64,000 nucleotides of DNA from an uncultured delta proteobacterium (GTDB lineage Bacteria > Desulfobacterota > BSN033 > UBA1163). The first letter of the stretch is position 1, and the number at the start of each line of letters is the position of its first letter. This document shows, in pieces, positions 7,414 through 52,949 of the stretch. The stretch lies in the NCBI GenBank assembly GCA_963708295.1, contig CAVPSJ010000011.1:257121-321120 (forward strand). Direction: 5' to 3'. A model generated the notes under the pieces. The model saw only the letters and a program-made list of their open reading frames with translations, had not been told where the DNA came from and did no database searches. The translations under genes and the position numbers were made by a program.

Positions 7414-8204
7414 CCATGAACGATATTCAAAATCAAATGGATCATCGGAAGATTGAGATCAATAAAGTCGGGGTAAAAAATATCCGTTATCCGATTACCG
7501 TCTTGGATAAGGCAAAAGGGTTTCAACACACGGTGGCCAGCGTCAACATGTATGTGGATCTCCCTCACCGCTTCAAGGGAACCCACATGAGTCGCTTTGT
7601 AGAGATCCTCAATAAATACAAGGGAGATATTGCCATCAAAAACTTCTCGAAGATTCTGACAGAGGTCAAAAGGAGGCTGAAGGCCAAGACCGCCCACCTC
7701 GAGGTAGAATTTCCTTATTTCATCGAAAAGGAAGCTCCCATCACGAAATCGAGGAGTCTGATGGAATATATCTGTCGAATCTGCGGTTCAAGCAATGAAA
7801 AAGAGGATTTCTATATGGGGATTGTCGTGCCGATCACGACCGTGTGCCCCTGCTCAAAAGAGATTAGCCAATTCGGGGCACACAACCAAAGATCCCTTGT
7901 GACGGTCAACCTCCGATTCAGAAAATTCATCTGGATTGAAGATATCATCCAATTGATCGAGGAATGTGCTTCGTGTGATCTTTACTCTATTTTGAAAAGG
8001 CCGGACGAGAAATATGTGACAGAAAAAGGCTACGAAAATCCGATGTTTGTCGAGGATGTGGTAAGAGAGATTGCCAAACGCCTAAAAAAGGATAAGAACA
8101 TCACCTGGTTTACCGTGGAATCTGAAAACTTCGAGTCGATTCATAACCACAGCGCTTATGCTTTTGTAGAAAGAGGCGAAAACTTATCATTATCAAGGCC
8201 TTAA
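7410..8204 (+). CDS. folE2: GTP cyclohydrolase I type 2 (FolE2); 3' end supplied by island 1
   Basis: KGTHMSRF, TTVCPCSK, GAHNQRS, LKRPDEK, NPMFVEDVVR and ESIHNHSAYA motifs. Confidence 0.96.
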   Translation: MTMNDIQNQMDHRKIEINKVGVKNIRYPITVLDKAKGFQHTVASVNMYVDLPHRFKGTHMSRFVEILNKYKGDIAIKNFSKILTEVKRRLKAKTAHLEVEFPYFIEKEAPITKSRSLMEYICRICGSSNEKEDFYMGIVVPITTVCPCSKEISQFGAHNQRSLVTVNLRFRKFIWIEDIIQLIEECASCDLYSILKRPDEKYVTEKGYENPMFVEDVVREIAKRLKKDKNITWFTVESENFESIHNHSAYAFVERGENLSLSRP

Positions 8205-8408
8205 CTGTACCACCTTCTCTACCTGTGGTGAATTTTGTGACAAATCTTCCCCCCGAATATCGAGATACTTATTCTCCACAATCTCTGTCTTCTTCTTAGC
8301 GATCACCTTTTCCGCACCCTTCCGAGATGGCCCAATGGACTCCCTAACCTTCTGACCCTTGAACCAGAAATCAATATACCAATTATCCCCTCTTTGATAG
8401 ACTGCCAT
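8193..8408 (-). pseudogene. Tyrosine integrase remnant (N-terminal arm-binding segment fused to a probable C-terminal tail)
   Basis: MAVYQRGDNWYIDFWFKGQKVRESIGPSRKGAEK resembles an integrase arm domain; no catalytic domain; tail SQNSPQVEKVVQLRP resembles the tail of the island 2 remnant. Confidence 0.75.
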
Positions 8409-8440
8409 TCAAACCCCTCCTTTCTTTGAATTGTTTAGGA

Positions 8441-8596
8441 TTAATTGGATTTACCTCCTTTCTTCTCATATTTCTCCAGCCATTCATCCATTGCTCTTCT
8501 GATGATTTCTGCTATTGGATAGCCAGCTTTTTTAGCAATCGCTTTGAACTTCTTTAACTGAGCCTCCGTCAAATAGATATTAGTTCTTGTCATCAT
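8441..8596 (-). CDS. Ribbon-helix-helix (CopG-like) protein
   Basis: MTRTNIYLTEAQLKKFKAIAKKAGYPIAEIIRRAMDEWL fits the RHH pattern. Confidence 0.8.
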   Translation of the reverse strand: MMTRTNIYLTEAQLKKFKAIAKKAGYPIAEIIRRAMDEWLEKYEKKGGKSN

Positions 8597-8722
8597 GGTT
8601 TTTTCTCCCCAAGAGATATACATCATACATACACTAATTAGACTCTTTTGTCAAACACTATTTTTGAGACTCTTCCTCGGTCATTGGTCGGTTAGGTTGA
8701 TCGGGCTTACCTTATTTCCCAT

Positions 8723-9148
8723 TCATTTGCATACTATTTTGTAACATATTGCTGTAATTGTTCCCGAAGCTATAAAATTCCATTCCCGTTCTAAATTAGG
8801 GAGAGAATATATAACACCTCCATGTTTGGAGCAATCGTGGGAGCAAACAATACAGCTCTTTTTGTCAACACAATTGATCTCCCGCAAAATCAATGTTTCA
8901 CCTAAATTCTTATATTTCTCCCCAAATCTTGCTGCCATCTCATCTATACCTTTCTGTGAATAAATAATTCTCAACCAAATTCCATAAATGTTCTCTGATG
9001 GATGAGTTATTCCTTGTGCGTCGTAAAAATATTCCCCCGTATCGTTTTTTAGCAAAAACTTCCAATCCGCCCCCCACACTTCCGCACTACCAAACATAGC
9101 AACTCCAATAATAAAAATAACTCCAAGCTTTACTAAGAATGATTTCAT
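8723..9148 (-). CDS. Secreted protein, surface-adhesin E-like family
   Basis: Signal peptide ending EVWGA; DWK..YFYDA..I, EINC and W.FI motifs; paralog of 9652-10080. Confidence 0.65.
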   Translation of the reverse strand: MKSFLVKLGVIFIIGVAMFGSAEVWGADWKFLLKNDTGEYFYDAQGITHPSENIYGIWLRIIYSQKGIDEMAARFGEKYKNLGETLILREINCVDKKSCIVCSHDCSKHGGVIYSLPNLEREWNFIASGTITAICYKIVCK

Positions 9149-9169
9149 TCAGGTCCCCCCTTCTCGCCT

Positions 9170-9346
9170 TGTTACACCATTTTTTCCCCATTTCAAGATT
9201 TACCTCGTTCACCATTTCCAAAAACTCCTCTTTGGTGAATATTCCCTCTCCACAAGCAACCTAATAATAGCCTCCTGTGAGACTACCTGGGACATTAAGA
9301 GTTCATCATTCAAAACGAGGTGTTTAGGGTCGAGAGCGATTGCCAT
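9170..9346 (-). pseudogene. Frameshifted small hypothetical gene
   Basis: MAIALDPKHLVLNDELLMSQVVSQEAIIRLLVE then, in a shifted frame, GIFTKEEFLEMV; strong RBS; a homologous remnant lies at ~48420-48505; left end approximate. Confidence 0.55.
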
Positions 9347-9386
9347 TCAACTTACCTCCTTCATTCTTATATTTCCCAAAAGCTCA

Positions 9387-9572
9387 TCAATCGTTCTTCT
9401 GATACCCTGCTAATCCACAATACCCCATTTCCTCATGAGTAGTTGGTACTGCGGGGGATTTTCTCCATGCCATACAGAATAAGTTGGAACAGAATCTGTT
9501 AGGATCCGCCCTATCCAATACAAATTTAAACGGACAATATTTTGTAGCTGCGTCTGCTATTGTGACTAACAT
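9387..9572 (-). CDS. Small Cys-rich phage-like hypothetical protein
   Basis: CPF...C...CMAW...GYCGLAG pattern; AAGGAGG RBS. Confidence 0.65.
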   Translation of the reverse strand: MLVTIADAATKYCPFKFVLDRADPNRFCSNLFCMAWRKSPAVPTTHEEMGYCGLAGYQKND

Positions 9573-9651
9573 GATCCATCCTCCTTCTTTCGGCCATTGG
9601 CCGGTTAGGGTTAGTCGGGTTCACCTCCTTTGTGTTTTCCACCGTGGTTCT

Positions 9652-10080
9652 TTAAGGTTTCTTACATGGAATTTTGTATAATGCCTCATCAATAGAGTCA
9701 GGAGACATAAAATTCCAATTGGAGATTTGTCTATAATCAGGTATTAATAACTTTCCATCTTCAGAATAAAATGCTATAGGTACTATTACCTTCTTTTTAT
9801 CTCCACAATTGTATTCAAATAAAGCTATCGCATAGCTCAAAGTCTCATATTTTTTCCCTAACAACCTCACCATATCATGTACACCCTTCTCCATATAAAG
9901 TACTTTTATCCACACCCTAACACTACCCTGAGATGGTCGGGTTATGCGATCTGCATCGTAGTAATACATTCCATCATCAGCTTGATCAATATATCTCCAA
10001 CTCGCTCCCCACACTTCACCATAGGTAAAGATAGCAAGCCCGATAAGGATGACTCCCAATTTACCCAATAATGATTTCAT
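9652..10080 (-). CDS. Secreted protein, surface-adhesin E-like family
   Basis: MKSLLGKLGVILIG..EVWGASW signal; YYYDA.RI, VRVWIK, EYNC and W.FMSPDS motifs. Confidence 0.65.
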   Translation of the reverse strand: MKSLLGKLGVILIGLAIFTYGEVWGASWRYIDQADDGMYYYDADRITRPSQGSVRVWIKVLYMEKGVHDMVRLLGKKYETLSYAIALFEYNCGDKKKVIVPIAFYSEDGKLLIPDYRQISNWNFMSPDSIDEALYKIPCKKP

Positions 10081-10111
10081 TTGGTCACCCCTTCTTTGGA
10101 GAAGTGTAACT

Positions 10112-10927
10112 CTATTCTAAAACTTCACTGCTGATCCATCCTTCTTGGTTATTGTCTGACCGCACCCTAACCCATTCCCCAGATTGCTCCAAAATAGTTA
10201 GCTTATCACCTTTTCGGAAAGTAGCTATTACTGGATAATCATTTCCGGGGCCAGATTTAGCAACTGAGAAGTCCCAAGTAAGAATTTTCCTTGTCCCTGA
10301 AGAAAAAGTAGTTGGGGCTGACGTTATAGGTTTCTCAGGTGCATATTCTTGGCTCTTAACAGCTTCACTGTTAATCCATCCTTCTTTTCCATCTTCCAAC
10401 CGAACATTAAACCACTCTCCACGTTCTCCAATTACGGTTAACTTATCTCCTTTATCCACTGTCATCACGATAGGAAATTCATTCCCTGCGCCTGAGCGAA
10501 TATCTGCGGAAGTCCAAATGACAGTAACAACAGTTGCTGTACCTGAAGGAGGAATAGTTGGGGTTGATGTTATTGGTTTTTCCGGTTTTGCTGTTTCAGG
10601 TGGTAGGGATTCTACAGCTTTTAATTGTGGTGCTTTTTGTTGGCTGTTGTAACCTCCTTTTGTATAAAATAAAGTGCTATTGGTAATAAGGGATCCCCCT
10701 GCGTGAACCTCCCACTCATACCCCCTATCCTTCATGCAGTTGGCTAAATCTTTCTGAAGCTTCGGGAATACCGCAGATGACCTCATTGCCTCACGCCTGC
10801 ACTCAACATAATCCTTTGAAAACTGCTCATATGAAGCTTCCGGTTTAACCCAATACCCATTTTTAAGATAAGGAGCACATCCATTAAACATCACCATCGC
10901 CACCAAAACCAACATGATCTTTTTCAT
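10112..10927 (-). CDS. Lipoprotein with two bacterial SH3 (SH3b) domains
   Basis: Lipobox FNGC; two repeats of R/KSG.GN..P......GDKLT....GEW..VR.....EGWI. Confidence 0.8.
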   Translation of the reverse strand: MKKIMLVLVAMVMFNGCAPYLKNGYWVKPEASYEQFSKDYVECRREAMRSSAVFPKLQKDLANCMKDRGYEWEVHAGGSLITNSTLFYTKGGYNSQQKAPQLKAVESLPPETAKPEKPITSTPTIPPSGTATVVTVIWTSADIRSGAGNEFPIVMTVDKGDKLTVIGERGEWFNVRLEDGKEGWINSEAVKSQEYAPEKPITSAPTTFSSGTRKILTWDFSVAKSGPGNDYPVIATFRKGDKLTILEQSGEWVRVRSDNNQEGWISSEVLE

Positions 10928-11269
10928 GCTTTCCCTCTGTCCTTCTTCTCAAACCTGTCCCAATACTCATCAGATGTCCTTTTAAGATAGACCTTTCATT
11001 TGGATTGTCAATAAAATCTTTGGACTTGATTGGACATGGATTCAGAAAAAATTTTATTGTATTTCGTTTGAGCTTGAGTGAGAAGAAGATTCGTTAATTT
11101 TTTTAATCTCAAACTCCATAGTGCTCTTTCATTGAGGAGATTAATTTTTCCATGGCTTGGTGTTCCATGGCCGTGCATGGTTCAAAAATCCATTTTTCCC
11201 TGAGAGTTTCTTGGGTAATATGAATGATGTTCATTTTATACCCCCTATCAATGAGAATCGAGTAAGTCT

Positions 11270-11425
11270 TTATTGTCTGAACCATTTAATATCCTTCTTT
11301 GCAATCCTCCAATCCCTTCCCACCTTGTGGGCAGGGATTCCCTTAGCCCAAAGCCTCCGATAGATCGTCTTTGGATTAACCCCGAAATGGTCTGCAAGCT
11401 GGTTGACAGTATAGTAGTCCTTCAT
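11270..11425 (-). CDS. Excisionase-like helix-turn-helix protein (51 aa, not in ORF track)
   Basis: Manual translation MKDYYTVNQLADHFGVNPKTIYRRLWAKGIPAHKVGRDWRIAKKDIKWFRQ*. Confidence 0.8.
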   Translation of the reverse strand: MKDYYTVNQLADHFGVNPKTIYRRLWAKGIPAHKVGRDWRIAKKDIKWFRQ

Positions 11426-11705
11426 TTCTTTTTTCCCTCAATCCGAAGAGGGCCATTTGAAGGAAGTAATTTAGAACTTTTGTGTCAATCTCTTTCTCTT
11501 GTGGCTCCCATTAAAAATAAAATCCCAGTAATTTCGGACTCTTAAATTTGGCATACAAAATGCATTTTCTAACTCAGGCGGTTGACTCCGCTTACCTCCT
11601 TTTAATGATATCTCCTTTCACAGCACCTTCGGGGGGTGGATCAGGGAAACCCCCCACCAGTTCTGTGTATGTTGGCTTACAAGGTTTACAGAAAGGAGAA
11701 GTATA

Positions 11706-11930
11706 ATGCAAAAATGGGAGCATTCTTTTTTGATACGATACATAACAGAAAAAACGAGATACAAAGAAGCTGTTTTCATTGGGTCTGACGGCACAGAAGA
11801 AAAATGCCCCGCTAAAGAAGAAGACCTTTTGATAGAGCTTAACAAGTTGGGAGCAGAAGGGTGGGAGGTTGCGGGTTATGGAGTCTCTCCAAGCCATAAA
11901 GCAATATGGACCCTCAAAAGACCTATATAG
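11706..11930 (+). CDS. DUF4177-like small protein
   Basis: MQKWEH...LNKLGAEGWEV...LKRP; AAGGAG RBS. Confidence 0.7.
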   Translation: MQKWEHSFLIRYITEKTRYKEAVFIGSDGTEEKCPAKEEDLLIELNKLGAEGWEVAGYGVSPSHKAIWTLKRPI

Positions 11931-11998
11931 AGAAGCAAAGTAGCCTATTATCCCCATAGTTCACATTTTCTTCAATCTCCCTCTGTTCTCTCGCTTGA

Positions 11999-12187
11999 TC
12001 AATACAATCCATCAAGTTCCCTTTTTAGGCAATCCACACAGGCGATGCCCTGCGTGGTGAAGTCAAGCTTTTCATCTCGCATAATTTCTCGCTGACAAAC
12101 ATGGCATTGAACTATTAAGTCCACAGGAGGCAACTCACCCGACTTCCTACGTTTCCAAGTGGAGAGGAATTCTTCTGCTGGATTCAT
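11999..12187 (-). CDS. Small CxxC...CxxC hypothetical protein
   Basis: CHVC and CVDC pairs; ATGA overlap with the upstream ORF. Confidence 0.5.
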   Translation of the reverse strand: MNPAEEFLSTWKRRKSGELPPVDLIVQCHVCQREIMRDEKLDFTTQGIACVDCLKRELDGLY

Positions 12188-12429
12188 TGTCCCAAGTCTT
12201 GTTTAACCTGACTGATAATCCTCTTAGCTTTTAGAAGCTGCTCCACTGCCAAGTCTCTTTCACTCGTCAAGCTGGCAATGATCCTGTGGCATCTTAGAAC
12301 CTCACCATCTGCCCAGGTTTTATGATCTTCCACAGACTGTTTGACGGCCTGTCCTAAATTCTCCAGAGTTTTCTCAATCGAATCCTGTCTCTCGATACTC
12401 GACTTCAATTTTTCTTGGACTTTCTCCAT
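12184..12429 (-). CDS. Coiled-coil hypothetical protein
   Basis: 81-aa ORF with AAGGAG RBS and heptad character. Confidence 0.55.
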   Translation of the reverse strand: MEKVQEKLKSSIERQDSIEKTLENLGQAVKQSVEDHKTWADGEVLRCHRIIASLTSERDLAVEQLLKAKRIISQVKQDLGQ

Positions 12430-12480
12430 ACTATTCTCCTTCCTGAATCTTCTTTAGACACTTCTCACAGCATGGCTTCT

Positions 12481-12573
12481 CTATCCATCATTGCTGATCT
12501 GGAACAAGTACCCGTTCAACTCCTGGGGAATGTTATCAATAAGAATTTCTAGTCGTGGTGGTCTTGGGTTCAT
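12481..12573 (-). pseudogene. Possible N-terminal stub of a phage primase-polymerase (NrS-1-like)
   Basis: MNPRPPRLEILIDNIPQELNGY then an early stop; NIPxEL is typical of such N-termini, but the match is short. Confidence 0.3.
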
Positions 12574-12587
12574 AATACAGAGTTCCT

Positions 12588-12719
12588 TCAGTTCTTAATG
12601 GTTACAGCGGTACTGCCTGGAAATATCTTCTTCACTTCCTCAACAATACGAGCTTCTTCCTTGGTCAGCTTCCAGGTTTTGCTTTTCACTTTCTCGGGTT
12701 TTGGTTTTGTGTCTGTCAT
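12588..12719 (-). CDS. 43-aa hypothetical protein
   Basis: MTDTKPKPEKVKSKTWKLTKEEARIVEEVKKIFPGSTAVTIKN*. Confidence 0.45.
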   Translation of the reverse strand: MTDTKPKPEKVKSKTWKLTKEEARIVEEVKKIFPGSTAVTIKN

Positions 12720-12728
12720 CTTATTGAT

Positions 12729-12764
12729 AAAAAAGCCGAGACACCATTTAGGTAATCTCGGCTT
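12729..12764 (-). terminator. Intrinsic terminator inside the island's small-gene operon
   Basis: 9-bp stem AAGCCGAGA/TCTCGGCTT followed by a U-tract on the minus strand. Confidence 0.75.
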
Positions 12765-12811
12765 ACTGGCTTTAAGCTTGCTTGCTTATGACTGGCTTGC
12801 CGTTTTATTCG

Positions 12812-12988
12812 TTAATTAAGTATGTAGCCACCATTCCTGGTTCTTATAATTCGGTATTCACGGACCTTTCCGGGCTCAAGGAGAATAATCAATCTTTTAG
12901 GGAATTGGCCCTTACTATCAAGAATAAGTTTATCTCCTTCAATCCTATCTGCATGTAAGTGAGTCTCTGATTTCTTGGTTTGCTCCAT
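12812..12988 (-). CDS. 58-aa HemP/HmuP-like small protein
   Basis: MEQTKKSETHLHADRIEGDKLILDSKGQFPKRLIILLEPGKVREYRIIRTRNGGYILN*; the C-terminus resembles the HemP motif YRLRxTRxGKLIL. Confidence 0.5.
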   Translation of the reverse strand: MEQTKKSETHLHADRIEGDKLILDSKGQFPKRLIILLEPGKVREYRIIRTRNGGYILN

Positions 12989-13142
12989 GGTTATTTTCCG
13001 ATTCCTCTTGAAGTCTTACCAGCAAGAATGTTGAATACGGAAGAGACACCCTGCTTCACCGTTTCGCCATGTTTCCGCCTGATTTCTGGTTAACGATGTC
13101 ATTCATTACCCTGTCAATCTCCCTTCATCACTCTCAAAGTAT

Positions 13143-13204
13143 GAAGCGGAGGCCCAGGCAGTAGGGAATACCGCTTTTCGGTAGCGAACCTAGAGCCTCC
13201 CTTC
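13143..13204 (-). ncRNA. Candidate two-stem structured RNA element
   Basis: Outer stem GAAG-GGAGGC..CTAGG / CCTGGGCCTCC-CTTC with G-U pairs on the minus strand; inner hairpin TACCG-AAAAG-CGGTA. Confidence 0.35.
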
Positions 13205-13747
13205 AATGTTTACTTCTCCTCGGTAGTATCTTCAACCTTTTCCTGCTTTTCCTGTTCACTGGTCGCGGCCTTTTGCACGCACTCTCCTAACGCCCCGATT
13301 GAGTCAGCTTCCCGGCATTCAGGGTGCTGACGGTAAAGTATAAGACCCCCAATGATCGTCCCCGGCATGAAAAAAAGCCGCTATCAAAAGCCTCTGTCTT
13401 TTTGGTCGTGGTGAGGGTGAAAGTTATAGCAAGCAGGATCGCCAACAGAATAACTATTAAATTCTTCATTTTCCGTTCTCCTTTTTGAATGGGCTCAAAG
13501 TCTATCCTGCGCCTCAGTTGATTATATCTCCCCCTTTTGGGATTCTGTAACTGTTTTCTCTTTATCGTGTTCAAACCCTTTCTTGTCGAATGCCCTAGTC
13601 TATCCCTCTGTTTTAAAATATGGGGGGATTTCGTGACTACCTTCGCTCCTTTTCAATAGAATCAAGGCTATTTCGTCACTCATCTTCATTTTAGAAAATT
13701 CCAAAGGTTTCATTAAGTTGTCGGCCTTGCCTATCTTGCGAGAAGCT

Positions 13748-13787
13748 CAGCGCTTATGCCTATGTCGAGCGAGGGGATAACGTTTGA
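13748..13787 (+). other. attR with the displaced folE2 3' end
   Basis: Encodes SAYAYVERGDNV*, versus the current folE2 tail SAYAFVERGENLSLSRP*. Confidence 0.85.
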
Positions 13788-13861
13788 GAAACCGAGTTGC
13801 TGCCGAACCATGAATCGATTTAAAGGGAGAACTGATCGAGGAGGGTTTGAAAGCTTTGGCC

Positions 13862-14512
13862 TTATCTTCCGGTCCTTGTTTTCGCCACATCCCAGCAGTA
13901 GTCATAAATATGGAGTCCCTTGCTGGAGGCAATGATCTCACCGTCCTCTACCCCAATCTCCTTCGCCATATATTCCTTAAGGAGTTGAAGGCCGGCCAGA
14001 TTGGATGGAAATCCCGCCCATAAATCCCACGAACGGAAGTAGAGCATGAAATGGAGTTTTCCATTACGAATGCGCGTATCCACGCCGCGGAGGCATTGGG
14101 GGTCCTGGAGTAAAATTGAACCGGCGTTGCCGACCGCCATGTACGCCTGATTGGTATTGAGTCCTTCTTCCCGATACATCCGGATGACTTCGTCGATCTG
14201 TTTTTCAAGATCCTCCCCATAGGTGTAGGTTTCGTGGACATCTTTTCTCGATGTGATCAACTTCTCAAGATATTGTTCCACGTATTCCATCGAGGTGGGA
14301 GGGGGAACATTGCAACCCGGAGGGATGTCCGGGATGAGCGGTCTTGTACCGGGGTGGGTGATGTGGACGACGATATAGTCATATTCCAACCTCTTCTGGC
14401 CTTTGAAACTTCCCCGGTCGATGGTATATTCATAGCCCTTGTCAAAAAGGTTGTAAACACATTGAAACCATGCGTCTGGCAAATCCCTTGCCCGAATGAA
14501 CTCGATCTTCAT
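13862..14512 (-). CDS. thyA: Thymidylate synthase family protein (short type)
   Basis: YTYG, catalytic PQCL, FRSWD...FPSN and LHIY motifs; 216 aa. Confidence 0.8.
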   Translation of the reverse strand: MKIEFIRARDLPDAWFQCVYNLFDKGYEYTIDRGSFKGQKRLEYDYIVVHITHPGTRPLIPDIPPGCNVPPPTSMEYVEQYLEKLITSRKDVHETYTYGEDLEKQIDEVIRMYREEGLNTNQAYMAVGNAGSILLQDPQCLRGVDTRIRNGKLHFMLYFRSWDLWAGFPSNLAGLQLLKEYMAKEIGVEDGEIIASSKGLHIYDYCWDVAKTRTGR

Positions 14513-14636
14513 CGTTCCCTCTGCGGTCAGTAGATTTTATTTAACGGCTTCTATTAACCCACCTCCCCTGAAGTTGTCAACCCGTATGCTTTCCCCTTTG
14601 AGACGGTGTCGCAATCATAATGAAAAGTAGATATAG

Positions 14637-14795
14637 GCCGGACAGGCACACAGGCTCCTTAGCTTTAGAATGCGGTCTTGTAGAATGGGTAATCGAGCTT
14701 CTTGCAAGTGCAATCTCTTCATGGGATTGCGGCCCGGTAGCTGACCGATAAAGGGTTTCCGCCCTAAAGCTTCGGAACCTGGCTGCCTGTCCGGC
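14637..14795. ncRNA. Candidate rod-shaped RNA (6S-like architecture)
   Basis: Nested stems GCCGGACAGGCA/TGCCTGTCCGGC, CAGGCTCC/GGAACCTG, AGCTTTAG/CTAAAGCT and GCGG/CCGC, then a central bubble and apical GCAATC/GATTGC; intergenic. Confidence 0.45.
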
Positions 14796-14932
14796 TTTAC
14801 GACGGAAGTGGTTTTCCGTGAGTTGTGACACAATCTCTTTGGGGGAGGAAAAGGGTAGTGGTGGCTATCTACTTTTGATTTTGAACAACAGGTGGCACAA
14901 AAGGGGAATGACGCTTCACTTAATCGGGTATA

Positions 14933-15742
14933 CTACTGATGACGCCAGAAATGATAAAGATAGAGCTGTGCATAGCCTGCATAAGGGCCAAAATGATTGG
15001 ATACAAATTCCTCCATCGCCCTCTCTCCAGTTTTCTTCCGATTAAAATAAGTCTTTTGTAATCCCTTTTTAATCCACGTATCCATCGGAAAGGCTTCAAG
15101 GAAATCCAACGAATAAAGAAGCGTACAATCCGCAACCTTTTTCCCTACTCCGGAAAGGCTCATTAACCGTTCTCTCGCCTCCTTGTAGGATAAATCTCTA
15201 AGCGAAAGGAGAGCGCTCCTGTCTATGCATTGGCTCGCCTTGACTAAATATTTTGTCCTAAACCCGGCCTTGACCGGTTCCAATTGGAGAGGGGTTTCCA
15301 TACAACGGGGCTCTGGAAATCCGTAACCCACATGGTTTCCCCAAGAGATCTTTTTCCCAGAAGATTTGCAAAGGACCTCGATCATGGAGCGTATCTGGGA
15401 AATGGCTTTGGCCGACGAGCACAGGAAAGAGATCAGACACTCCCATGGATCCTGCCGGATCATTCTTAACCCTCGATATTTCTCGATGGCCTCGTGAACG
15501 ACCGGGTCCCGATCGATCTCTTTGTAGACGAAATCCAAGTCTTCATCCAACCTAAAAAAGCGGATCACAAAAGACTCTTCGACTCCATCATAGAAGAGGA
15601 ATTCCCCGGCTTGACGGATGGAAAACATTCTATCCGAGGATTGAATCATGTAGGTATCGAGGGCCTTGGTAAATCGAAAGAATTGTCCGCATTCCAGGGT
15701 ATGCTGAAGAGAAAAGAAGGGGATTCGAAGTCGGGAGGTCAT
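14933..15742 (-). CDS. 8-oxoguanine DNA glycosylase (OGG/HhH-GPD family)
   Basis: TLECGQFFRF, RQDPWECLISF, HhH LSGVGKKVADC, AFPMDTW and YAGYAQLYL. Confidence 0.88.
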   Translation of the reverse strand: MTSRLRIPFFSLQHTLECGQFFRFTKALDTYMIQSSDRMFSIRQAGEFLFYDGVEESFVIRFFRLDEDLDFVYKEIDRDPVVHEAIEKYRGLRMIRQDPWECLISFLCSSAKAISQIRSMIEVLCKSSGKKISWGNHVGYGFPEPRCMETPLQLEPVKAGFRTKYLVKASQCIDRSALLSLRDLSYKEARERLMSLSGVGKKVADCTLLYSLDFLEAFPMDTWIKKGLQKTYFNRKKTGERAMEEFVSNHFGPYAGYAQLYLYHFWRHQ

Positions 15743-15923
15743 TCTTTTTTCCCACCCCAGGTCGAATGATAGCGGCGGTATAAGCTTCTAAGTTGAAATA
15801 TTTCTCAGCCACCCGGTGTCCACGCCGTCTCTCTCATGTTCCGGCCCGGCCTCAGGCCAGGAGGTATCCCACCGCTTCTGGCGGCGGAGTCCGAGGGGTT
15901 GATTTTTTCCCGTGGTGACTCCC

Positions 15924-16634: not shown

Positions 16635-16652
16635 CTTTCAGAATAGAATTCC

Positions 16653-38954: not shown

Positions 38955-38974
38955 GAACCTAAGGGGGTGAGCCT

Positions 38975-42598: not shown

Positions 42599-42647
42599 TT
42601 ACAATAAAAGATTCTTCAAAATCCCAATCGAAGAGGAGGGACCAGCA

Positions 42648-44612: not shown

Positions 44613-44656
44613 CAGGGGTTTGCTGCATTGACAAATGGATCCGAAATCACTTATAA

Positions 44657-45657
<1,001 letters not shown>

Positions 45658-45659
<2 letters not shown>

Positions 45660-45818
45660 ATTCGAAGCACGAAGTCCGAAATTCGAAACAAGCACGAAGG
45701 TCCAAAATAAAAATGTTAAAATAGTCCAAATAGTCTTAATTCTCAATTATTGAATTCAGATTTCGTTTCGGATTGGTCCGAGGTAGACCTTTCGCCCGAT
45801 ATTCGAATTTCGGATCTG
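45658..45818. repeat. Degenerate 7-nt-period inverted repeat
   Basis: AAATTCG/AAGCACG/AAGTCCG units at left; CGATATT/CGAATTT/CGGATCT units at right. Confidence 0.5.
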
Positions 45819-45843
45819 AACTGACAAAGGATTAGGAGACTCT

Positions 45844-47196
45844 ATGTGCGGTATCTTTGGGATCTATAATCATTTTGAAGCATCCAATCTCGCGTATCTA
45901 GGCCTCTATGCCCTCCAGCATCGTGGCCAGGAGAGCGCTGGGATCGTCTCCTCAGACAGGAGACAACTCCATCATTACCGCCAGATGGGGTTGGTCTCTG
46001 AGGTCTTCACCCAAGATATTCTGAAGCGACTCACTGGAAATAGCGCCATCGGCCATGTCCGGTATTCAACCGCCGGTTCAAGCGAGCTCAAAAACGCCCA
46101 GCCTTTTTCTGTGGATTATCACAAAGGCAGTTTAGCCATCGCCCACAACGGCAATCTGACCAATGCCTTTCTTATTAAAAGCGAACTCGAATCGAAAGGT
46201 TCCATATTTCAGTCGAATATGGATACGGAGGTCATCGTTCATCTCATCGCCCGTTCCAAAGAAAAAAGCTTCGTAGAGCGAACGGCCCATGCCCTCAAAC
46301 AGGTGGAAGGAGCCTACTCTTTACTCATCCTGACGGAGAACGAGATGATCGCAGCCAGAGATCCTTTTGGTTTAAGGCCTTTGGTTCTCGGTCAGCTTAA
46401 GGATGCACCTGTGGTTGCCTCTGAGACATGCGCCTTTGACCTCATCGGAGCCAAGTTTGTCAGGGAGATTGAACCCGGCGAAATCCTCTTGGTGAATGAA
46501 GACGGAACGAAATCCTTCAAACCCTTTGCGCGCAAACAACTTCACCAATGCATCTTTGAGTTCATCTACTTCGCCCGGCCGGATAGTTTCCTTTTCAACA
46601 GAAGTGTTTATGAAGTCAGAAAATCGTTTGGAGTTCAGCTTGCCAGGGAGTCCCCAGTCGATGTGGATATGGTCGTTCCTATCCCAGATTCCGGATTCTC
46701 GGCCGCATTGGGCTACGCAGCTGAATCGAAAATCCCCTTCGAACTTGGAATGATAAGAAATCATTATATCGGACGGACGTTTATCGAACCCGAACGACGA
46801 ATTCGCCATTTCGGTGTCAAGATCAAGCTGAACCCGGTAAGAGAATTATTGAAAGGCAAAAAGATTATCACCGTGGATGACTCCATCGTCCGGGCAACCA
46901 CCAGCCGAAAGATCAACAGGATGTTTCGGAATGCCGGCGCACAAGAAATTCATGTCAGAATCAGCTCTCCACCCATTACCCACCCCTGTTTTTTCGGCAT
47001 CGACACCCCAAAAAGATCAGAACTGATCGCCTCCTCCCATAAGATCAAGCAGATTCAAAAGTTCATCGAGGCGAGTTCTCTACATTATTTAACTTTAGAG
47101 GGTCTCAAGAAGTGTGTAAAGGAAGACGCCGAACAGTTCTGCTATGCCTGTTTCACAGGAGATTATCCCATACCTTTCCAGATGGATTTAGAGTAA
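45844..47196 (+). CDS. purF: Amidophosphoribosyltransferase; 3' end at island 2 attL
   Basis: [40 protein letters not shown] and VDDSIVR. Confidence 0.97.
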
Positions 47197-47201
47197 AAAC
47201 A

Positions 47202-47330
47202 TTACCCCTTACATTCCAATACTTTTCGTTCCTGCTCTTTTTCATGTGGGGGATTTTGTGCCATGAGCTGATCCAGAGCATCCAAAGCGCTTATTTTATG
47301 GTTTGGAGCAGAACGGGCGTGGCGTAACCT
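47202..47330 (-). pseudogene. Tyrosine integrase C-terminal remnant
   Basis: LRHARSAPNHKISALDALDQLMAQNPPHEKEQERKVLECKG* resembles the RYAHLAPxHK..A...LD tail with the catalytic Tyr lost. Confidence 0.6.
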
Positions 47331-47363
47331 CCTTCTTTTGCCAATCGGCGGGTTAACGTTTTA

Positions 47364-47795
47364 TCACGTCCGCCTCCTTCCCGTTGTTTCTTTCTTGCCT
47401 AAAAGTAAGAATCCCAAACCAAGTCCAAAAATAATGATGCTAAATGCTACACAATCAAAATAGTGAATAGAAATAGAAATTTCCCGGTTCTTAACTCTTG
47501 ATGGTAGGTCTAATATGATCTCTTCTACGGACATATCCGAATCTGAAAAACTATCTACTTTCCTCCCTCTCTCTAATTTCATGTATTTTTCATATACACT
47601 AGGGTCTCTTTTTCTAAGCATGTCTTCATATTCCTTATGACTGTAATAAATCGCATCCTTTAGGACGAACCGACCAACATATTTAGATCGAATATTCTTA
47701 AGGTTAAACTTCCCTCCCTTGAAATCAGTGTAAAGTGAAACAATTATAGGGAAGAGAAATCCAAAAATAAGAAATATGAAACCAATCCTTCTCAT
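47364..47795 (-). CDS. Hypothetical membrane protein (N- and C-terminal TM)
   Basis: 143 aa; GGAGGTGA RBS; two hydrophobic segments. Confidence 0.65.
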   Translation of the reverse strand: MRRIGFIFLIFGFLFPIIVSLYTDFKGGKFNLKNIRSKYVGRFVLKDAIYYSHKEYEDMLRKRDPSVYEKYMKLERGRKVDSFSDSDMSVEEIILDLPSRVKNREISISIHYFDCVAFSIIIFGLGLGFLLLGKKETTGRRRT

Positions 47796-47856
47796 TCACC
47801 TCACCTCCTTTCTTTCGCCCGTTGCCCGGTTAAAGTTATCGGGTTGACCTCCTTCC

Positions 47857-48021
47857 TCAGAATTTTACTCCTGCGCTCTTTGCCCAGATATAGAAAAAAT
47901 CATCAGCAAAGATCCAGACCCGTCGCTCGTCATCATTCAATTTCTTGACGTTCGGATATTTCCGCCGGATGGCCTGATCCAACTCCCGCCTGTTCTTTCT
48001 GATAAATTGGTCTAAGGTCAT
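47857..48021 (-). CDS. 54-aa phage-like hypothetical protein
   Basis: MTLDQFIRKNRRELDQAI...LNDDERRVWI...WAKSAGV; GGAG RBS. Confidence 0.55.
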   Translation of the reverse strand: MTLDQFIRKNRRELDQAIRRKYPNVKKLNDDERRVWIFADDFFYIWAKSAGVKF

Positions 48022-48533
48022 ACTTAATCTCCGTTTTTTGCGTCCAGAATGCTCCCAGGACAAGGCTTCTCACCGCTGCCTATACTGCAAAAAACCATGA
48101 ATCAATAAGTTACGTTAACCTCCATCCGTGCCAATGGCATCAAACGTTAACGGCTCACCTTTTCTGCTTTTGTGACCTTCTTCGAAACTGTATTGATATT
48201 TTTTCAACCCTAAGACGCAACGTTTTAAGCTCGTCCTCTAAGCCTTTCACTTGATTTTCAAGGCTGGTAACCTTCGATTCTAAAGATCGTATTCTCCTTG
48301 ATTGTGATCATTATTCTTTATATCTATCAAGGAGGTCAGCGGACCATCCAATCGCCACGATGAATATTAAACCACAGAGAATAGCGACTAAATATTTTTC
48401 ATGCTTGCCCCCCTCTCTGGCCTTGTTACACCATCCTGTCGATCTTGAGATTAACTTCTCATTCACCATTTCCAAAACCTCCTCCTGGGTGATTATTCCC
48501 TTTTCATCGCCAACAAGATCAATACAATCTTAT

Positions 48534-48689
48534 TCATGCTTTCCCCCTCCCCTTTTTCTCAAACCCTTCCCAATATTTGTCAAAAGCCCTTCTTAAAATC
48601 TCAGAAGCACTAAGACCTGTTTTTTTACAAATCAAACCCAATCTCCTGAACTGGAAATCCGTGAGATAAAACATTCGCCTCTTACCCAT
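48534..48689 (-). CDS. Ribbon-helix-helix protein (51 aa, not in ORF track)
   Basis: MGKRRMFYLTDFQFRRLGLICKKTGLSASEILRRAFDKYWEGFEKKGRGKA*; homologous to 8441-8596. Confidence 0.75.
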   Translation of the reverse strand: MGKRRMFYLTDFQFRRLGLICKKTGLSASEILRRAFDKYWEGFEKKGRGKA

Positions 48690-48906
48690 GATCTTAAATC
48701 CCCTCCGATTGAGATGTATCGTTATGATATACCCCTCATTTCTTTTTTGTCAAGCATTTCCTTGGACTTCATTGGGCATGGATTTAGAAAACATTTAGAA
48801 AACATTTTGTTGCGTTCTACCTAATTTTTTGATATCTTGTTCTTGGCAATCAACTCCTGACTGCGTCTCCTCATATTTTCGATTCTAAAATAGGGAGTGC
48901 GCTTAA

Positions 48907-49401
48907 ATGAATTTAATAGCTGTTATAGAGAAACTTATTAATGGATCTGCCATCCTTAAGGAACAGCTTGAGTTTCTTAGGGATCAAATATCTGCACTTG
49001 AGAAAGAGAATGGTGCGCTCAAATCGGAGATTGCCAATTTGAAGCACAAGCAAAATGAAAATGAATCTCAATTTGATAAGGCAACAAAAGAAATAGAACG
49101 ATTGAATCAGGTCATTGAAGCACCTAAAAAAGAGGATGCAAAGCCACATCTCGATGCAATGACTGAGAAAGTTTTGAAACTGTTATTTGACAAAGGTCGG
49201 GACATGTCTATGAATGAAGTCGCTGCCACTCTTTCTATGGATATTGGCACCGCTCAGTATCATTTCGATCTCCTTTTAGAAGGTAATTTAATAATACAAA
49301 CAAGGACAGGCTTCACATCTTCTCGGAGTCGTGAAAATGCCCCTTTTTTTGAGCTTACTCTCTCTGGTCGGAAATATGTCGTTGAGAACATTCTCAAATA
49401 A
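48907..49401 (+). CDS. Coiled-coil plus winged-helix hypothetical protein
   Basis: Heptad N-terminal half; VAATLSMDIGTAQYHFDLL...FELTLSGRKYV wHTH. Confidence 0.7.
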   Translation: MNLIAVIEKLINGSAILKEQLEFLRDQISALEKENGALKSEIANLKHKQNENESQFDKATKEIERLNQVIEAPKKEDAKPHLDAMTEKVLKLLFDKGRDMSMNEVAATLSMDIGTAQYHFDLLLEGNLIIQTRTGFTSSRSRENAPFFELTLSGRKYVVENILK

Positions 49402-49568
49402 CCATTGCCTCACCTGTTGCCTCAACCACACAATATCCTTCTTCGCAATCCTCCAGGCCCTTTCGACCTTATACGCCGGGATTGGATTAGCCACAACCTC
49501 TGGCAGATCGCATTTGGATTCAATCCACGATATTCTGCCAGTTCGCTAAGTGTGAAGAACTCCTTCAT
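49395..49568 (-). pseudogene. Frameshifted excisionase-like HTH gene
   Basis: MKEFFTLSELAEYRGLNPNAICQRLW / IPAYKVERAWRIAKKDIVWLRQ in two frames; homolog of 11270-11425; ends approximate. Confidence 0.7.
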
Positions 49569-49825
49569 TGTTTTTGATACCTCCGTTATTTCATGAGGTC
49601 TCATTTTCTAAAATCCTCCTTCATACAACCTTTCCACTGATAATCGATAATTCTTCCGATAATTCTTGTTGAAGTTTCCGATCCAAATGAGTAGACTCTT
49701 ATTAAACTATGGGGCTTCAAACCCACCTGCCTCCTAACTTTTGGGGGATGATCGTTGGGGGAAATAAAGACCAAGAAATCCGTCACCCTAACTGGGATTG
49801 ACATGCAAGGAAGGAGGAACAAAAG

Positions 49826-50558
49826 ATGATCTGGAATGAATATGCCGAGAGGTTGAGAGAGGTTTTGAAAATCGAGGGAAATCCTATTGCCGTTACCTTC
49901 TCAATGGCCCCCACCGAGGGGGGAAGAGAGGGTAAGCATTGGGTCTGTGGGGCTTTGCAGGAAGCAAGGGATGGGGCCATTATCAATTTAGATAAGGAGA
50001 ATTCAGCCTGCCATGGAGGCACGTGGCATCTTGGGCTGGGGCCAAGACCCACCGGGAAGGACGATAAAGCACTGAAGAAATTCTTAGTTGAAGGAGAGAA
50101 ATTGTTCTGCTCTATTGCTACCTTTCATCGAGCAATGACCCTGACCGCCCAGCCTCCCCTCGGGCTGGCTGATTATGTTGTTTTTTCTCCTTTGGGAAAA
50201 GCCAAATTCAAGCCAGACCTCGTTCTTTTCCTATGCAACGCCGAGCAGGCGTGCCGTCTTCTTACTTTAGCCACTTACGATAGCGGAGTTTCACCCAAGA
50301 CTGAACTCGTCGGATCGGCCTGCCATATGTCCATTACCTATCCTCTGGTATCTGGGGAGATCAATGTGAGTTTCATGGATTATACGGCAAGAAAGATGAA
50401 AGGTTATAAGCCGAATGAACTCTTTGTATCTGTTCCCTACCATCGGATGGCTGGGATACATTGAGAGCATTCCTTTCTGTACGGCAGGAACGGCCAAGAC
50501 AGAATATCCACCTGAATTTAGACACTTAGTGGAAGGGTCGTCGAAATCCAAAACCTAA
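49826..50558 (+). CDS. DUF169 family protein; 1-nt frameshift near 50460
   Basis: C..L..AR.G, SACHGG..LG, PDLVLFLCNAEQA and SACH; the tail IESIPFCTAGTAK continues in a shifted frame. Confidence 0.75.
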
Positions 50559-50775
50559 TACTACGAAAGGACAGACGAATTTAAGAGCAAATTGCAGATT
50601 CGTTAGGATAGGATAGATAACTTAACAGGTGAAACGGGATGTCACGGACTTCTTTCTGAAGTCAACATTTGACACCGATCACGGAAAGATGTAGATCACT
50701 TGCCGAAATATTGTTTTCCGAGGATCGCCATTAACAAAACGTAGAAAGCGGTCGGCGATCAAGAAAGGATGGAAT

Positions 50776-52161
50776 ATGGGAAGACGAAGAACGATTCTTA
50801 TCCTACTGGGGCTATCAATAGTGCTGATGGCAGTGTCAACACAAGCAATGCCGGTAAGTTACGTTTTCAGGGTTACTGCGACGACTGGGCCGCTCGCCGG
50901 TGTCAGCGCGAGAGGCACTTTCACATTTGACAATAGCATCATTCCTTCAGGAGGCGGGACTCTCGATCAGATCAATCTGTTATCCTACCTCAATTTCACG
51001 TGGCACGGTATCTTCTATGATCAGACCACTGCCAACACGGGCGGGTTGGCTTTCGATGAGTCCGGGAACCTATCGTCATTCGGTTTCGGCAATCAACATG
51101 GTGACGGATGGGTGGGAATTGGTATTGACACCAAGGATTGGCTTGTTTCCTCGCACTCAGGATTCCGGTATGCGAGTCCTGGCACAGGTGACTTCTGGGG
51201 CGGGACTGTTACTATAGAGCGGGCCGGGCCCGTTTCCGAAGATTTTGATGGGGATAGAAAGACCGATATGGCCTTCTACCGTTCCAGCACGGGTGCCTGG
51301 TGGATCATCCCTTCTTCAGGGATAGGGCCACAAGGACAGGTGGGAGCCTATGGAATTGGCTGGGGTGGATCAGGTTTCAAACCTGTCCCAGGAGACTATG
51401 ACGGAGATGGAAAGACCGACATTGCAATCTACGATACCACAGGGGGTGCCTGGTGGATCATCCCTTCTTCAGGGATAGGGCCACAAGGACAGGTAGGGGC
51501 CTATGGGGTGGGTTGGGGCGGATCAGCCTTCAAACCTGTTCCTGGAGATTATGATGGGGATGGAAAGACCGATGTTGCAATCTACGATACCACAGGGGGT
51601 GCCTGGTGGATCATCCCTTCTTCAGGGATAGGGCCACAAGGACAGGTAGGGGCCTATGGGGTGGGTTGGGGCGGATCAGCCTTCAAACCTGTTCCTGGAG
51701 ATTATGATGGGGATGGAAAGACAGATGTTGCAATCTACGATACCACAGGGGGTGCCTGGTGGATCATCCCTTCTTCAGGGATAGGGCCACAAGGACAGGT
51801 AGGGGCCTATGGGGTGGGCTGGGGCGGATCAGTTTACAACCCTGTCCCTGGAGATTATGATGGAGATGGAAAAACAGACATTGCCCTCTACCGTTCCTAT
51901 ACAGATAACTGGTGGATTATCCCCTCTTCTGGCATAGGCCCACAAGGGCAGGTGGGGCCTTATAGCGTGGACAGAGGTGGAGAAGGATTCAAGCCTGTCC
52001 CCGGAGATTATGATGGGGATGGAAAGACCGATGTGGCCTATTACGGGAACATCGATGGCAGCTGGAGGGTCGTCTACTCCTCCGATGGAAGATACAACGT
52101 CATGTGTTGGAGTTGGGGGGGAGATGTTTCCGATATCCCTCTGACCACAAATCCAGATTAG
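50776..52161 (+). CDS. Secreted FG-GAP/VCBS-repeat protein
   Basis: Signal peptide; six D.DGD.KTD motifs; five 51-aa repeats. Confidence 0.85.
   Translation: MGRRRTILILLGLSIVLMAVSTQAMPVSYVFRVTATTGPLAGVSARGTFTFDNSIIPSGGGTLDQINLLSYLNFTWHGIFYDQTTANTGGLAFDESGNLSSFGFGNQHGDGWVGIGIDTKDWLVSSHSGFRYASPGTGDFWGGTVTIERAGPVSEDFDGDRKTDMAFYRSSTGAWWIIPSSGIGPQGQVGAYGIGWGGSGFKPVPGDYDGDGKTDIAIYDTTGGAWWIIPSSGIGPQGQVGAYGVGWGGSAFKPVPGDYDGDGKTDVAIYDTTGGAWWIIPSSGIGPQGQVGAYGVGWGGSAFKPVPGDYDGDGKTDVAIYDTTGGAWWIIPSSGIGPQGQVGAYGVGWGGSVYNPVPGDYDGDGKTDIALYRSYTDNWWIIPSSGIGPQGQVGPYSVDRGGEGFKPVPGDYDGDGKTDVAYYGNIDGSWRVVYSSDGRYNVMCWSWGGDVSDIPLTTNPD
51238..52040 (+). repeat. Coding tandem repeat, 153-bp unit x ~5
   Basis: Unit GGAWWIIPSSGIGPQGQVGAYGVGWGGSAFKPVPGDYDGDGKTDVAIYDTT; central copies nearly identical at DNA level. 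Confidence 0.9.
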
Positions 52162-52204
52162 ATTGATTGAACTGTTTTAGGTATTGATTTGTTAAGCTTG
52201 AGAA

Positions 52205-52249
52205 GAAGGGGTGCAGTTGTGATGATTATTTAGGCTGCATCCCTTTTTT
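52205..52249 (+). terminator. Intrinsic terminator
   Basis: AAGGGGTGCAGT...GCTGCATCCCTT followed by a T-run. Confidence 0.65.
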
Positions 52250-52949
52250 GTTCCCACAGAATGAGATTCATAAACTTTCCATGTTTCATTCCGTAATCGT
52301 CAACCTTAGTGGTGTTCAATGGCTAATGACTTGGTGGAAGTGTCAAATTAACTTTTTGATCGGCGGAGACTTGACAAATTGAGGATAACTTCCCTCTACG
52401 GGGACCTACAATGTTAAAGGCCCCAAAGCCGGTGTAGGAAATCCGGCCATGTTGGTCTGCGCTACCTATCGGACCTCTTCATCACCATGATTCTAATTCG
52501 GCTGAAAATTGTACCATCACCGCTCCCAATCTCTCATATCAAGGCTTTCCTGTTAATCGACTGAATTCTACTCTTCTGAAGTAATTTCGTCAAACTTAGA
52601 TTTCTTAATTAGATTTCTTAAACGTCTTCCCCCTTGCCGGTTTTCACTTTTCAGATGGATCTAGAGCCGATACCCTCGTGGAGTTCACTCTTCTCCTTTC
52701 TTCACATTCTATTGAATGGGACATTTGACTTTTTGGTTCAGAATTTGTAAATTGATACTTCGGCAGCGCCAAACCCCTTCGTTTAGGATAGGTTAAGGGT
52801 GTTGCTCAGCATCAACCCCTGCCTACCGGCAGGCAGGCTGAGCCAACTCCAGGCATTAGACTGGCGATAGCCAAAGGGTCGATTCGAACCCTCCGCGGTT
52901 CACTAGAGTCCGCTCGAGAAAAATACTTTTCTTCCCAAAGGAGAAGGAA

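Follow-up and report, generated by a model that had tools for sequence, protein, structure and literature searches.

The targeting of gene tails by integrating elements has long been known: e14 and phage 21 integrate at the 3' end of icd in Escherichia coli and supply a surrogate tail. More recently named classes are defined by what an element keeps. A cis-mobilizable element (CIME), as defined in the available part of one source, no longer has the genes for integration and transfer and has kept attL and attR (PMC5704250). Phage-inducible chromosomal islands (PICIs) and their minimalist form (PICMIs) are recognised, in the excerpt available of another, by an integrase (PF00589) or serine recombinase, an AlpA protein (PF05930 or PF12728) and a primase (DUF3987, DUF5906 or similar) (PMC10803314). 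In the section of a survey that we could draw on, incomplete prophages tend to keep their integrases or to be enriched in them (PMC7744054). Here we describe two islands in a window of 64,000 nt, the whole stretch of DNA analysed, from contig C11 of an uncultured delta proteobacterium. Island 1 lies at folE2 and island 2 at purF; a third sibling, island 3, lies outside the window on the same contig. Comparison with related loci suggests that islands 1 and 2 are probably what is left, after grounding, of small integrative elements that derive from phages and form a single lineage. Intact members would be 8-14 kb long and resemble satellites or cryptic prophages, and the lineage occurs in Syntrophaceae-like Thermodesulfobacteriota. 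The two islands are relatives of each other, but they appear to be worn-down larger phage-like elements and not a new class of mini-element.

Both islands are AT-rich and break into gene neighbourhoods that are conserved apart from them. Island 1 has folE2 (7371-8204, +) on its left and a thymidylate-synthase-like gene (thy; 13862-14512, -) on its right, and island 2 follows purF (45844-47196, +); no tRNA genes were found in the window. Island 1 is bounded by direct repeats that are 77% identical over 39 nt (30/39), are spaced 5598 bp apart and share the 12-nt exact core CAGCGCTTATGC (E=0.038). The right copy, read in frame, is a displaced native folE2 tail (..SAYAYVERGDN) that matches the native tails of relatives at unoccupied sites, and the tail now on folE2 resembles the tails of relatives at occupied sites. 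The GC content of island 1 is 0.414, compared with 0.478 for the window. For island 2, the best boundary repeat (18/20) has a spacing of 5473 bp and is marginal (E 0.02-0.04); it was detected by blastn-short, and a repeat search with a 10-nt seed missed it. An earlier description of this DNA from its letters alone (the sequence-only reading) had proposed two related islands with attachment (att) repeats of these spacings at folE2 and purF, which our comparison bears out, with that margin at purF.

We compared islands 1 and 2 by blastn. The results showed five collinear segments of 72-85% identity, covering the gene for an excisionase (Xis)-like protein, the tail of a ribbon-helix-helix (RHH) regulator gene, a regulatory segment, the remnant of a 57-aa gene and a ribosome-binding-site region. 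The promoter segment of island 1 is identical at 26 of 29 positions to 48763-48791 in island 2. It comprises a minus-strand TTGACA, followed some 17 nt later by a -10-like box and preceded upstream by TTGGAC repeats, and it is kept in islands 1-3 and in intact elements of two related genomes (G010 and G004). The motif CCTTGTTACACCAT occurs exactly twice in the window (9167 and 48421), once per island. The shared RHH, Xis-like, regulatory and small-gene parts that the sequence-only reading had listed were all recovered, and its RHH remnant, ATGA overlaps and starts MKKIMLVLVAM and MNKIVLILLAM are seen in the translations. An integrase remnant is present in both islands, as it had claimed, but the remnants differ in shape: island 1 keeps pieces of both ends of the protein, and island 2 only a C-terminal tail. 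We take the shared parts to be an integration and regulation module left after decay.

The cargo of island 1 is matched in locus L085, from another genus of the same family. Domain calls in the islands are Pfam profile matches; for the proteins of relatives, Pfam and PHROGs were used. In L085, folE2 is overlapped by the gene for an intact 351-aa tyrosine integrase (PF00589, 1.9e-31), followed by an RHH gene, an Adhesin_E-like gene, an SH3-lipoprotein gene, a second RHH gene and the contig end. The locus is collinear with island 1, with nucleotide identities of 87.7% for folE2 (continuous up to 8242), 79% for the integrase N-terminus and 83% for the cargo, in which L085 3757-4174 pairs with 8723-9148 and the ortholog of the SH3 lipoprotein lies at L085 4206-4775. 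The integrase remnant of island 1 is 87% identical to residues 1-52 of the intact protein; it matches Arm-DNA-bind_2 at 0.0021, below the cutoff, has no PF00589 match, like the remnant in island 2, and overlaps the folE2 tail with its last three codons. The window lacks L085 2421-3272, which amounts to an internal integrase deletion of about 850 bp in island 1.

A split integrase of the Sulfolobus spindle-shaped virus (SSV) type was also considered and rejected. According to the part of the source available, attP of such a 'suicidal' integrase lies inside the integrase open reading frame (ORF), and integration leaves the gene in two end pieces (PMC7253208). The integrated elements of L085, L097, L098 and L099 carry intact integrases, and the two pieces in island 1 are adjacent, from an internal deletion, and not at two ends.

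We scanned metagenome contigs with the intact L085 integrase and obtained 47 loci. folE2 adjoins the integrase in 7 of these and purF adjoins N-terminal stumps in 2; further targets of the integrase clade are tRNA-Gln, a cyclase-like gene and, in 4 loci, the tail of a GAF-ANTAR regulator gene. At folE2, intact elements that share the att core measure 8,306 bp (L099, 27/28 repeat), 9,733 bp (L098, 22/24) and 11,105 bp (L097, 18/18). L099 encodes a DUF3987 primase/helicase (2e-91), HTH_17 proteins and SpoVG. L097 encodes an AEP primase (8.6e-30), an RHH regulator and exported proteins. L098 has genes for a major head protein (1.4e-32) and an O-like replication initiator, a tail-fibre fragment, and an Xis with 83% identity to that of island 1. 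In L098 (280-11110), tandem elements stand at folE2: past an older integrase gene (280-1173) come an internal att site (1354-1377) and then a second complete element, which holds the head protein. Among the genome contigs, close relatives of the intact integrase were limited to the source locus and four matches at 36-37% identity (5 loci). An integrase of the same clade (83% identical N-terminus) also lies at tRNA-Gln in L086 243-14199 (G060:C130), beside an island whose large ORFs, judged by eye, look like type I CRISPR-Cas genes.

Two further elements lie at tRNA genes. The G010 element (L034 3620-17530, on G010:C1) is 13,866 bp long, is bounded by perfect 45-bp tRNA-Pro repeats and carries an intact integrase, TerL (3.2e-94), a primase/helicase (1.2e-43) and two large exported proteins (466 and 255 aa) with no Pfam or PHROGs match. 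No recognisable capsid or portal gene was found in it; it may be a satellite, or else a prophage that was truncated recently. The G004 element, at tRNA-Ala, has a different TerL (1.4e-47). The Xis, RHH, 57-aa and zinc-ribbon genes are common to the islands and these two elements, and the island 1 Xis is 76-78% identical to theirs at the amino acid level. The 57-aa gene, which like several other proteins searched has no Pfam or PHROGs match, is intact at L014 2446-2619 and L051 10172-10345. The intact layout is integrase, RHH, cargo and AlpA, then SpoVG and primase/helicase, sometimes with a head protein or TerL (8.3-13.9 kb).

We then compared the occupancy of both sites. folE2 was located in 29 of 31 related genomes, and 11 congener folE2 loci were inspected for the empty or occupied state. 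In G007 the site is empty, with thy 89 bp past folE2. The thy gene lies within 1.5 kb of folE2 in 7 of the 11 loci, and an acyl-CoA dehydrogenase gene stands between them in all but G007. Integrase remnants of differing shapes adjoin folE2 in three loci (G012, G009 and G006), and one (G001) has other inserted DNA behind an element-type folE2 tail. The G012 island, about 2.1 kb long, has no integrase; the G009 island (4,567 bp) holds a C-terminal integrase stump of 93 aa together with an RHH gene and three Adhesin_E-like genes. In a wetland metagenome (X7), contigs join 8176 directly to 13849 and 13865; these joints are empty sites of diverged relatives and not excision.

The purF site is empty in G014, G001 and G008, where no more than about 300 nt separate purF from the gene at 54260-54541 of the window. 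Decayed insertions were found at purF in five congeners (G006, G011, G009, G013 and G003), with integrase stumps, Adhesin_E-like genes, RHH genes or an insertion sequence. The integrase remnants at this site come from G006, G011, G009, G013, L135 and L136, and tails like that of island 2 follow purF in G006, G009 and G013. No significant attR repeat was found for the G012 folE2 island or for the purF islands of G006, G003, G013 and G009. The decay was repeated and independent, with integrase remnants of different shapes at folE2 and further remnants at purF. Decayed islands measure about 2.1 kb and 4,567, 5,598 and 11,474 bp.

These comparisons agree with several claims of the sequence-only reading. 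A lineage-specific family is seen in the third sibling on the same contig and in the related islands of congeners and metagenomes; its diversified target cores now include folE2, purF, the GAF-ANTAR regulator tail, the cyclase-like gene and tRNA-Gln; and the pattern in which the integrase is lost while RHH and exported-protein genes persist recurs across relatives. The search for copies with intact integrases that it had suggested found four at folE2 (L085, L097, L098 and L099).

A tblastn search of the whole assembly with the island proteins placed island 3 about 35 kb upstream of the window, in inverted orientation. It lies at tRNA-Arg(CCT) (C11 213073-224593; L001 1073-12593) between perfect 47-bp repeats 11,474 bp apart. 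Its integrase is of another subtype, with two frameshifts at GGGG and AAAAAA runs, which could be assembly errors. The SH3-lipoprotein genes of islands 1 (10004-10675) and 3 (C11 220742-221410) share 96.7% nucleotide identity over 672 nt, and outside this gene the two islands are only about 70-85% alike, which points to recent gene conversion or exchange between sibling islands.

The cargo ORFs are intact. The ratio of nonsynonymous to synonymous divergence (dN/dS) is about 0.55 (0.55 for the gene at 8723-9148), and synonymous divergence (dS) from L085 is 0.29-0.30 for cargo and 0.52-0.60 for flanking core genes, as estimated from short genes by a simple method. Because the cargo dS lies below that of the flanking genes, the cargo would seem to have moved or been exchanged after the hosts diverged. 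The cassette at 9652-10080 is missing from L085 and from some metagenome variants. In the contigs of these variants, about 960 nt are missing from the conserved signal-peptide region of one Adhesin_E-like gene to that of the other (joints 9081-9111 to 10045-10073); the cargo genes thus act like cassettes, with recombination at their 5' ends. Repeated integrase loss with the RHH-led exported genes kept is consistent with domestication of the cargo.

On the model of its family, the tyrosine integrase would recombine attP, located at or over the 3' end of its own gene, and the target's 3' end (folE2, purF, others or tRNAs). attP would bring a surrogate tail, so that the target gene stays intact and its native tail moves to the element's far end. 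The RHH regulator next to the integrase, transcribed from a sigma-70-like promoter flanked by TTGGAC repeats, would head an operon of exported cargo (Adhesin_E-like proteins and the SH3 lipoprotein) and regulate it from this conserved promoter. The Xis/AlpA HTH_17 protein, next in order, would control excision, and beyond it would lie replication genes (primase/helicase), sometimes with head or terminase genes. Comparison between the loci shows that the elements inserted, that they brought surrogate tails, that integrase genes were deleted in part and that all beyond Xis and small ORFs was lost. Island 1 has lost about 850 bp from within the integrase gene, and island 2 the whole gene except about 40 C-terminal codons; the replication and packaging part is absent from both, leaving att sites, regulators and cargo. 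The islands would now be fixed and pass on by vertical inheritance or by homologous recombination between siblings. The features of both islands are collected in Table 1.

Table 1. Features of islands 1 and 2 in window coordinates (RNA motif: Rfam covariance model against the gathering score).
Feature	Position	Strand	Basis
attL of island 1 (folE2 3' end)	8145..8183	+	Direct repeat; tail from ~8164 to the stop at 8204 element-supplied
Integrase remnant, 71-aa ORF	8193..8408	-	53 N-terminal arm-domain residues fused to ~17 C-terminal residues (ending QNSPQVEKVVQLRP, stop)
RHH (CopG/Arc-type) regulator, copy 1	8441..8626	-	RHH_3 5.7e-09; homologs adjoin the integrase in L085, L034 and L051
Exported Adhesin_E-like cargo protein, 141 aa	8723..9148	-	Adhesin_E 0.00099 (below cutoff); signal peptide
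Frameshifted remnant of the conserved 57-aa gene	9183..9346	-	Translation (contains EKGIFTKEEFLEMV); motif CCTTGTTACACCAT close by, at 9167
Second exported Adhesin_E-like protein, 142 aa	9652..10080	-	Adhesin_E 1.8e-09; signal peptide
Lipoprotein with two bacterial SH3 domains, 271 aa	10112..10927	-	SH3_3 1.4e-29; start MKKIMLVLVAM overlaps the second RHH remnant (ATGA)
Second RHH gene remnant	10924..10990	-	Translation (ending SDEYWDRFEKKDRGKA, stop); intact counterpart is the 54-aa RHH of L085 4772-4936
Regulatory segment, island 1	11005..11063	.	TTGTCAA (minus-strand TTGACA), TTGGAC-N4-TTGGAC repeats, A/T tract
Xis/AlpA-type HTH_17 protein, 51 aa, intact	11270..11425	-	HTH_17 (PF12728) 3.4e-13
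Zinc-ribbon protein, 62 aa	11999..12187	-	44% aa identity to L034 6446-6655, same place after Xis
int-alpA RNA motif (RF02996)	13132..13200	-	42.9 bits vs gathering 35.8; full-length model match; sole Rfam match in the window
attR of island 1 (displaced native folE2 3' end)	13743..13781	+	Repeat; tails of relatives; metagenome joints
attL of island 2 (purF 3' end)	47174..47193	+	18/20 repeat; purF tail conserved in 13 congeners
C-terminal integrase remnant, ~40 aa	47197..47330	-	Translation (contains RHARSAPNHKISALDALDQLMAQNPPHEKEQ); resembles the C-terminus of the integrase clade
Lipoprotein-gene stump, 14 codons	~48493-48537	-	Translation (ending MNKIVLILLAMKRE, stop); start MNKIVLILLAM overlapped by the RHH stop (ATGA)
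RHH regulator, island 2	48534..48689	-	RHH_1 at 0.0029; 65-67% aa identity to RHH of L097 and L103
Regulatory segment, island 2	48722..48796	.	blastn to island 1; promoter-segment alignment
Coiled-coil and winged-helix protein, 164 aa	48907..49401	+	Divergent from RHH; 55% aa identity to island 3, 61% to G006:C162
Frameshifted Xis/AlpA gene	49417..49575	-	blastn and translation
Candidate attR of island 2	52647..52666	+	18/20, E 0.02-0.04; without the purF stop codon; weak support

The int-alpA RNA motif of island 1 was not found in the 23 other related loci scanned. In a circular form, it would sit just past attP, downstream of the integrase gene, in keeping with the name of the motif. In the right part of island 2, the FG-GAP gene (50776-52161, +) consists of five 153-nt tandem repeats, has many paralogous loci on contigs C8, C19, C14, C15 and C17, and is host-like in GC despite its position inside the island. 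A Ser/Thr protein kinase gene (52950-54110, +) lies between the candidate attR and the conserved purF neighbour. Because the empty site joins purF to the gene at 54260-54541, the kinase gene is extra DNA too. A second copy of the purF tail near 54.1-54.26 kb, as for an older accreted island carrying the kinase gene, was not found, and no boundary repeat was detected there.

Several points weigh against descent of islands 1 and 2 from larger phage-like elements. The right boundary of island 2 is an 18/20 match (E ~0.02-0.04), and the right half of this island, with the DUF169 and FG-GAP genes, has a host-like GC of 0.491 (left half, 0.403). L085, whose cargo matches that of island 1, runs into the contig edge after the second RHH gene, and only its near part is visible. 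Except for the zinc-ribbon gene, nothing in the intact relatives examined is homologous to the right arm of island 1 (~11.5-13.7 kb); because this arm is unique and bears the int-alpA RNA motif, the direct parent of island 1 could be a small element of about 6.4 kb without a primase. We searched islands 1-3 for remnants of the missing part by tblastn with the G010 and G004 proteins (E<=0.05) and by tblastx against seven metagenome elements. The results showed matches limited to the integrase, RHH, Xis, the 57-aa gene, the zinc-ribbon gene and cargo, and no primase, head or terminase remnant in either island of the window. The G010 and G004 elements share only the integrase, RHH, Xis and one helix-turn-helix protein with each other, so that the 'family' amounts to a common module for integration and regulation, carried on phage-like backbones that are mosaic. 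The intact relatives may be satellites or just less-decayed prophages. Finally, contig C11 (321 kb) has a GC of 0.471, compared with 0.485-0.52 in the other 19 contigs, and its folE2 is nearer to a genome of another genus (95% aa identity) than to the 'same-genus' genomes (89-92%); because of this low GC and this folE2 affinity, the contig may be mis-binned, which would blur the 'same genus' comparisons.

A more specific form of the preferred reading is conceivable, if on balance doubtful. The intact relatives would form an undescribed satellite family of Syntrophaceae-like Thermodesulfobacteriota, with an integrase clade specialised on housekeeping-gene tails and tRNAs; the cargo array would have been domesticated after grounding as a recombining surface-protein locus, and it might still be movable in cis by accretion.

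Movement could also persist if the islands, like mobile CIMEs, were non-autonomous but had usable att sites, and were moved in cis by accretion, once a related element with a working integrase had inserted alongside, or in trans by the integrase of a sibling together with their own Xis. Island 1 keeps the identical 12-nt core and an intact Xis gene, tandem elements do stand at folE2 in L098, siblings exchange DNA (islands 1 and 3 in the SH3 gene), and the published definition, in the part of the source available, asks for just this loss of integration and transfer genes with attL and attR kept (PMC5704250). We nevertheless regard CIME-like mobility as unlikely. In the source assembly, which is 91% complete with 5.6% contamination, no cognate integrase was found: remnant aside, matches to the intact L085 ortholog are at most 33% identical, and the mobilisation in trans that the sequence-only reading had suggested is left without support. 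The integrase of island 3 is of another type and frameshifted twice, the att copies have diverged (30/39 and 18/20), and the island 2 Xis gene is frameshifted. Of 11 sequencing runs, all in the form of Logan contigs with shares of at most 0.12, four were compared with the window; these assembled contigs gave no sign of excision, the joints belonging to diverged relatives.

The sequence-only reading itself favoured mini-elements of about 5.5 kb, poor in integrases, as a separate family not yet described, with an array of small exported-protein genes as the normal state. The similar lengths of the two copies (5598 and 5473 bp), the unique right arm of island 1 with its int-alpA RNA motif, as a genuine element end might have, and the missing primase and packaging remnants speak for such a family. 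The size series largely refutes it: a common size is not reproduced among decayed copies (~2.1, 4.6, 5.6 and 11.5 kb), and intact relatives span 8,306-13,866 bp and carry primase/helicase, TerL or a head protein. Wherever the integrase is intact and the body of the copy visible, phage-type replication or structural genes are present, and half of island 2 is host-like in GC with a weak boundary. What that reading had itself named as evidence to the contrary, namely intact relatives that are known prophages or PICIs, shared parts that are simple decay products and a size that is not reproduced, is essentially what we found, and a separate mini-element family is in our judgement very improbable.

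A non-mobile origin, in which hypervariable intergenic regions are filled by paralogous RHH and exported-protein genes through gene conversion, would suit the RHH and Adhesin_E-like pairs that also occur away from att sites (beyond thy in L014 and L015; contig C4) and a purF-p93 interval that differs in nearly every congener, but it is scarcely credible given target-tail duplications exactly at the boundaries, integrase remnants in the expected place and orientation, intact integrases at the same site in L085, L097, L098 and L099, and precise empty sites.

The two islands, taken as remnants of larger phage-like elements, indicate that when islands without an integrase have much the same length in one genome, this can be a coincidence among products of decay. 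They document a hot-spot system in a poorly studied uncultured anaerobic lineage, in which one integrase clade has been retargeted to several protein-gene tails and a decay series at one site, followed across species, passes from intact copies through internal deletion to stumps. They also provide a lead to satellite-like elements in Thermodesulfobacteriota. In the literature searched, int-alpA was used only as a gene-order term, and no description of satellite-like elements in Thermodesulfobacteriota turned up, in queries that did not name the lineage itself.

Among known systems, the streptococcal CIMEs derived from integrative and conjugative elements (ICEs) or integrative and mobilizable elements (IMEs) are similar in that they are att-flanked at the 3' end of a target, have lost the integrase and are sites of tandem accretion, as described in the available part of the source (PMC5704250). 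Islands 1 and 2 are CIME-like in this respect: the integration genes are lost, and att sites, a regulator and exported-protein cargo kept, with the attR of island 2 uncertain. Unlike the parents of CIMEs, the parents here are phage-like (primase, head, terminase) and not conjugative: an ICE or IME origin does not fit, since the intact relatives carry phage genes, and no relaxase or transfer-gene domains were seen by Pfam in the island proteins.

Among the intact relatives, the 8.3-kb L099 fits the PICI/PICMI rule, as far as the excerpt of the source states it, with a tyrosine integrase, an HTH_17 protein of AlpA type and DUF3987 (PMC10803314). As with a PICMI, its insertion site is in or beside a housekeeping gene, and its integrase has a small gene abutting it. 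L098 adds a head protein, as in the capsid-forming PICIs (cf-PICIs) of a further source, cited from the part available (PMC13612085). Islands 1 and 2 fall outside the rule, without integrase and primase, although the island 1 Xis (PF12728, 3.4e-13) is of the AlpA kind. In contrast to PICIs and PICMIs, the hosts are uncultured Thermodesulfobacteriota and not Vibrionaceae or Enterobacterales, no helper phage, packaging or induction is known, and an RHH-led block of exported-protein cargo stands between the integrase and alpA genes.

Compared with incomplete prophages, as surveyed in the section available, the islands show the opposite tendency: the integrase is repeatedly destroyed, and cargo and regulators stay (PMC7744054). 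The cargo resembles the surface-adhesin protein E of Haemophilus (PF16747) in its match at 9652-10080 (1.8e-09; weaker at 8723-9148) and in its signal peptides. Its sequence similarity to that family is low, however, and here the genes come in several copies, as cassettes that a mobile element carries in an environmental anaerobe. Of what marks elements integrated by a tyrosine integrase, the repeats that duplicate the ends are present (weaker in island 2) and empty sites exist, and a functional integrase is absent. As in cryptic prophages of the e14 and phage 21 type, the target 3' end is duplicated, the tail supplied by the element keeps the gene functional, and decay leaves a short island.

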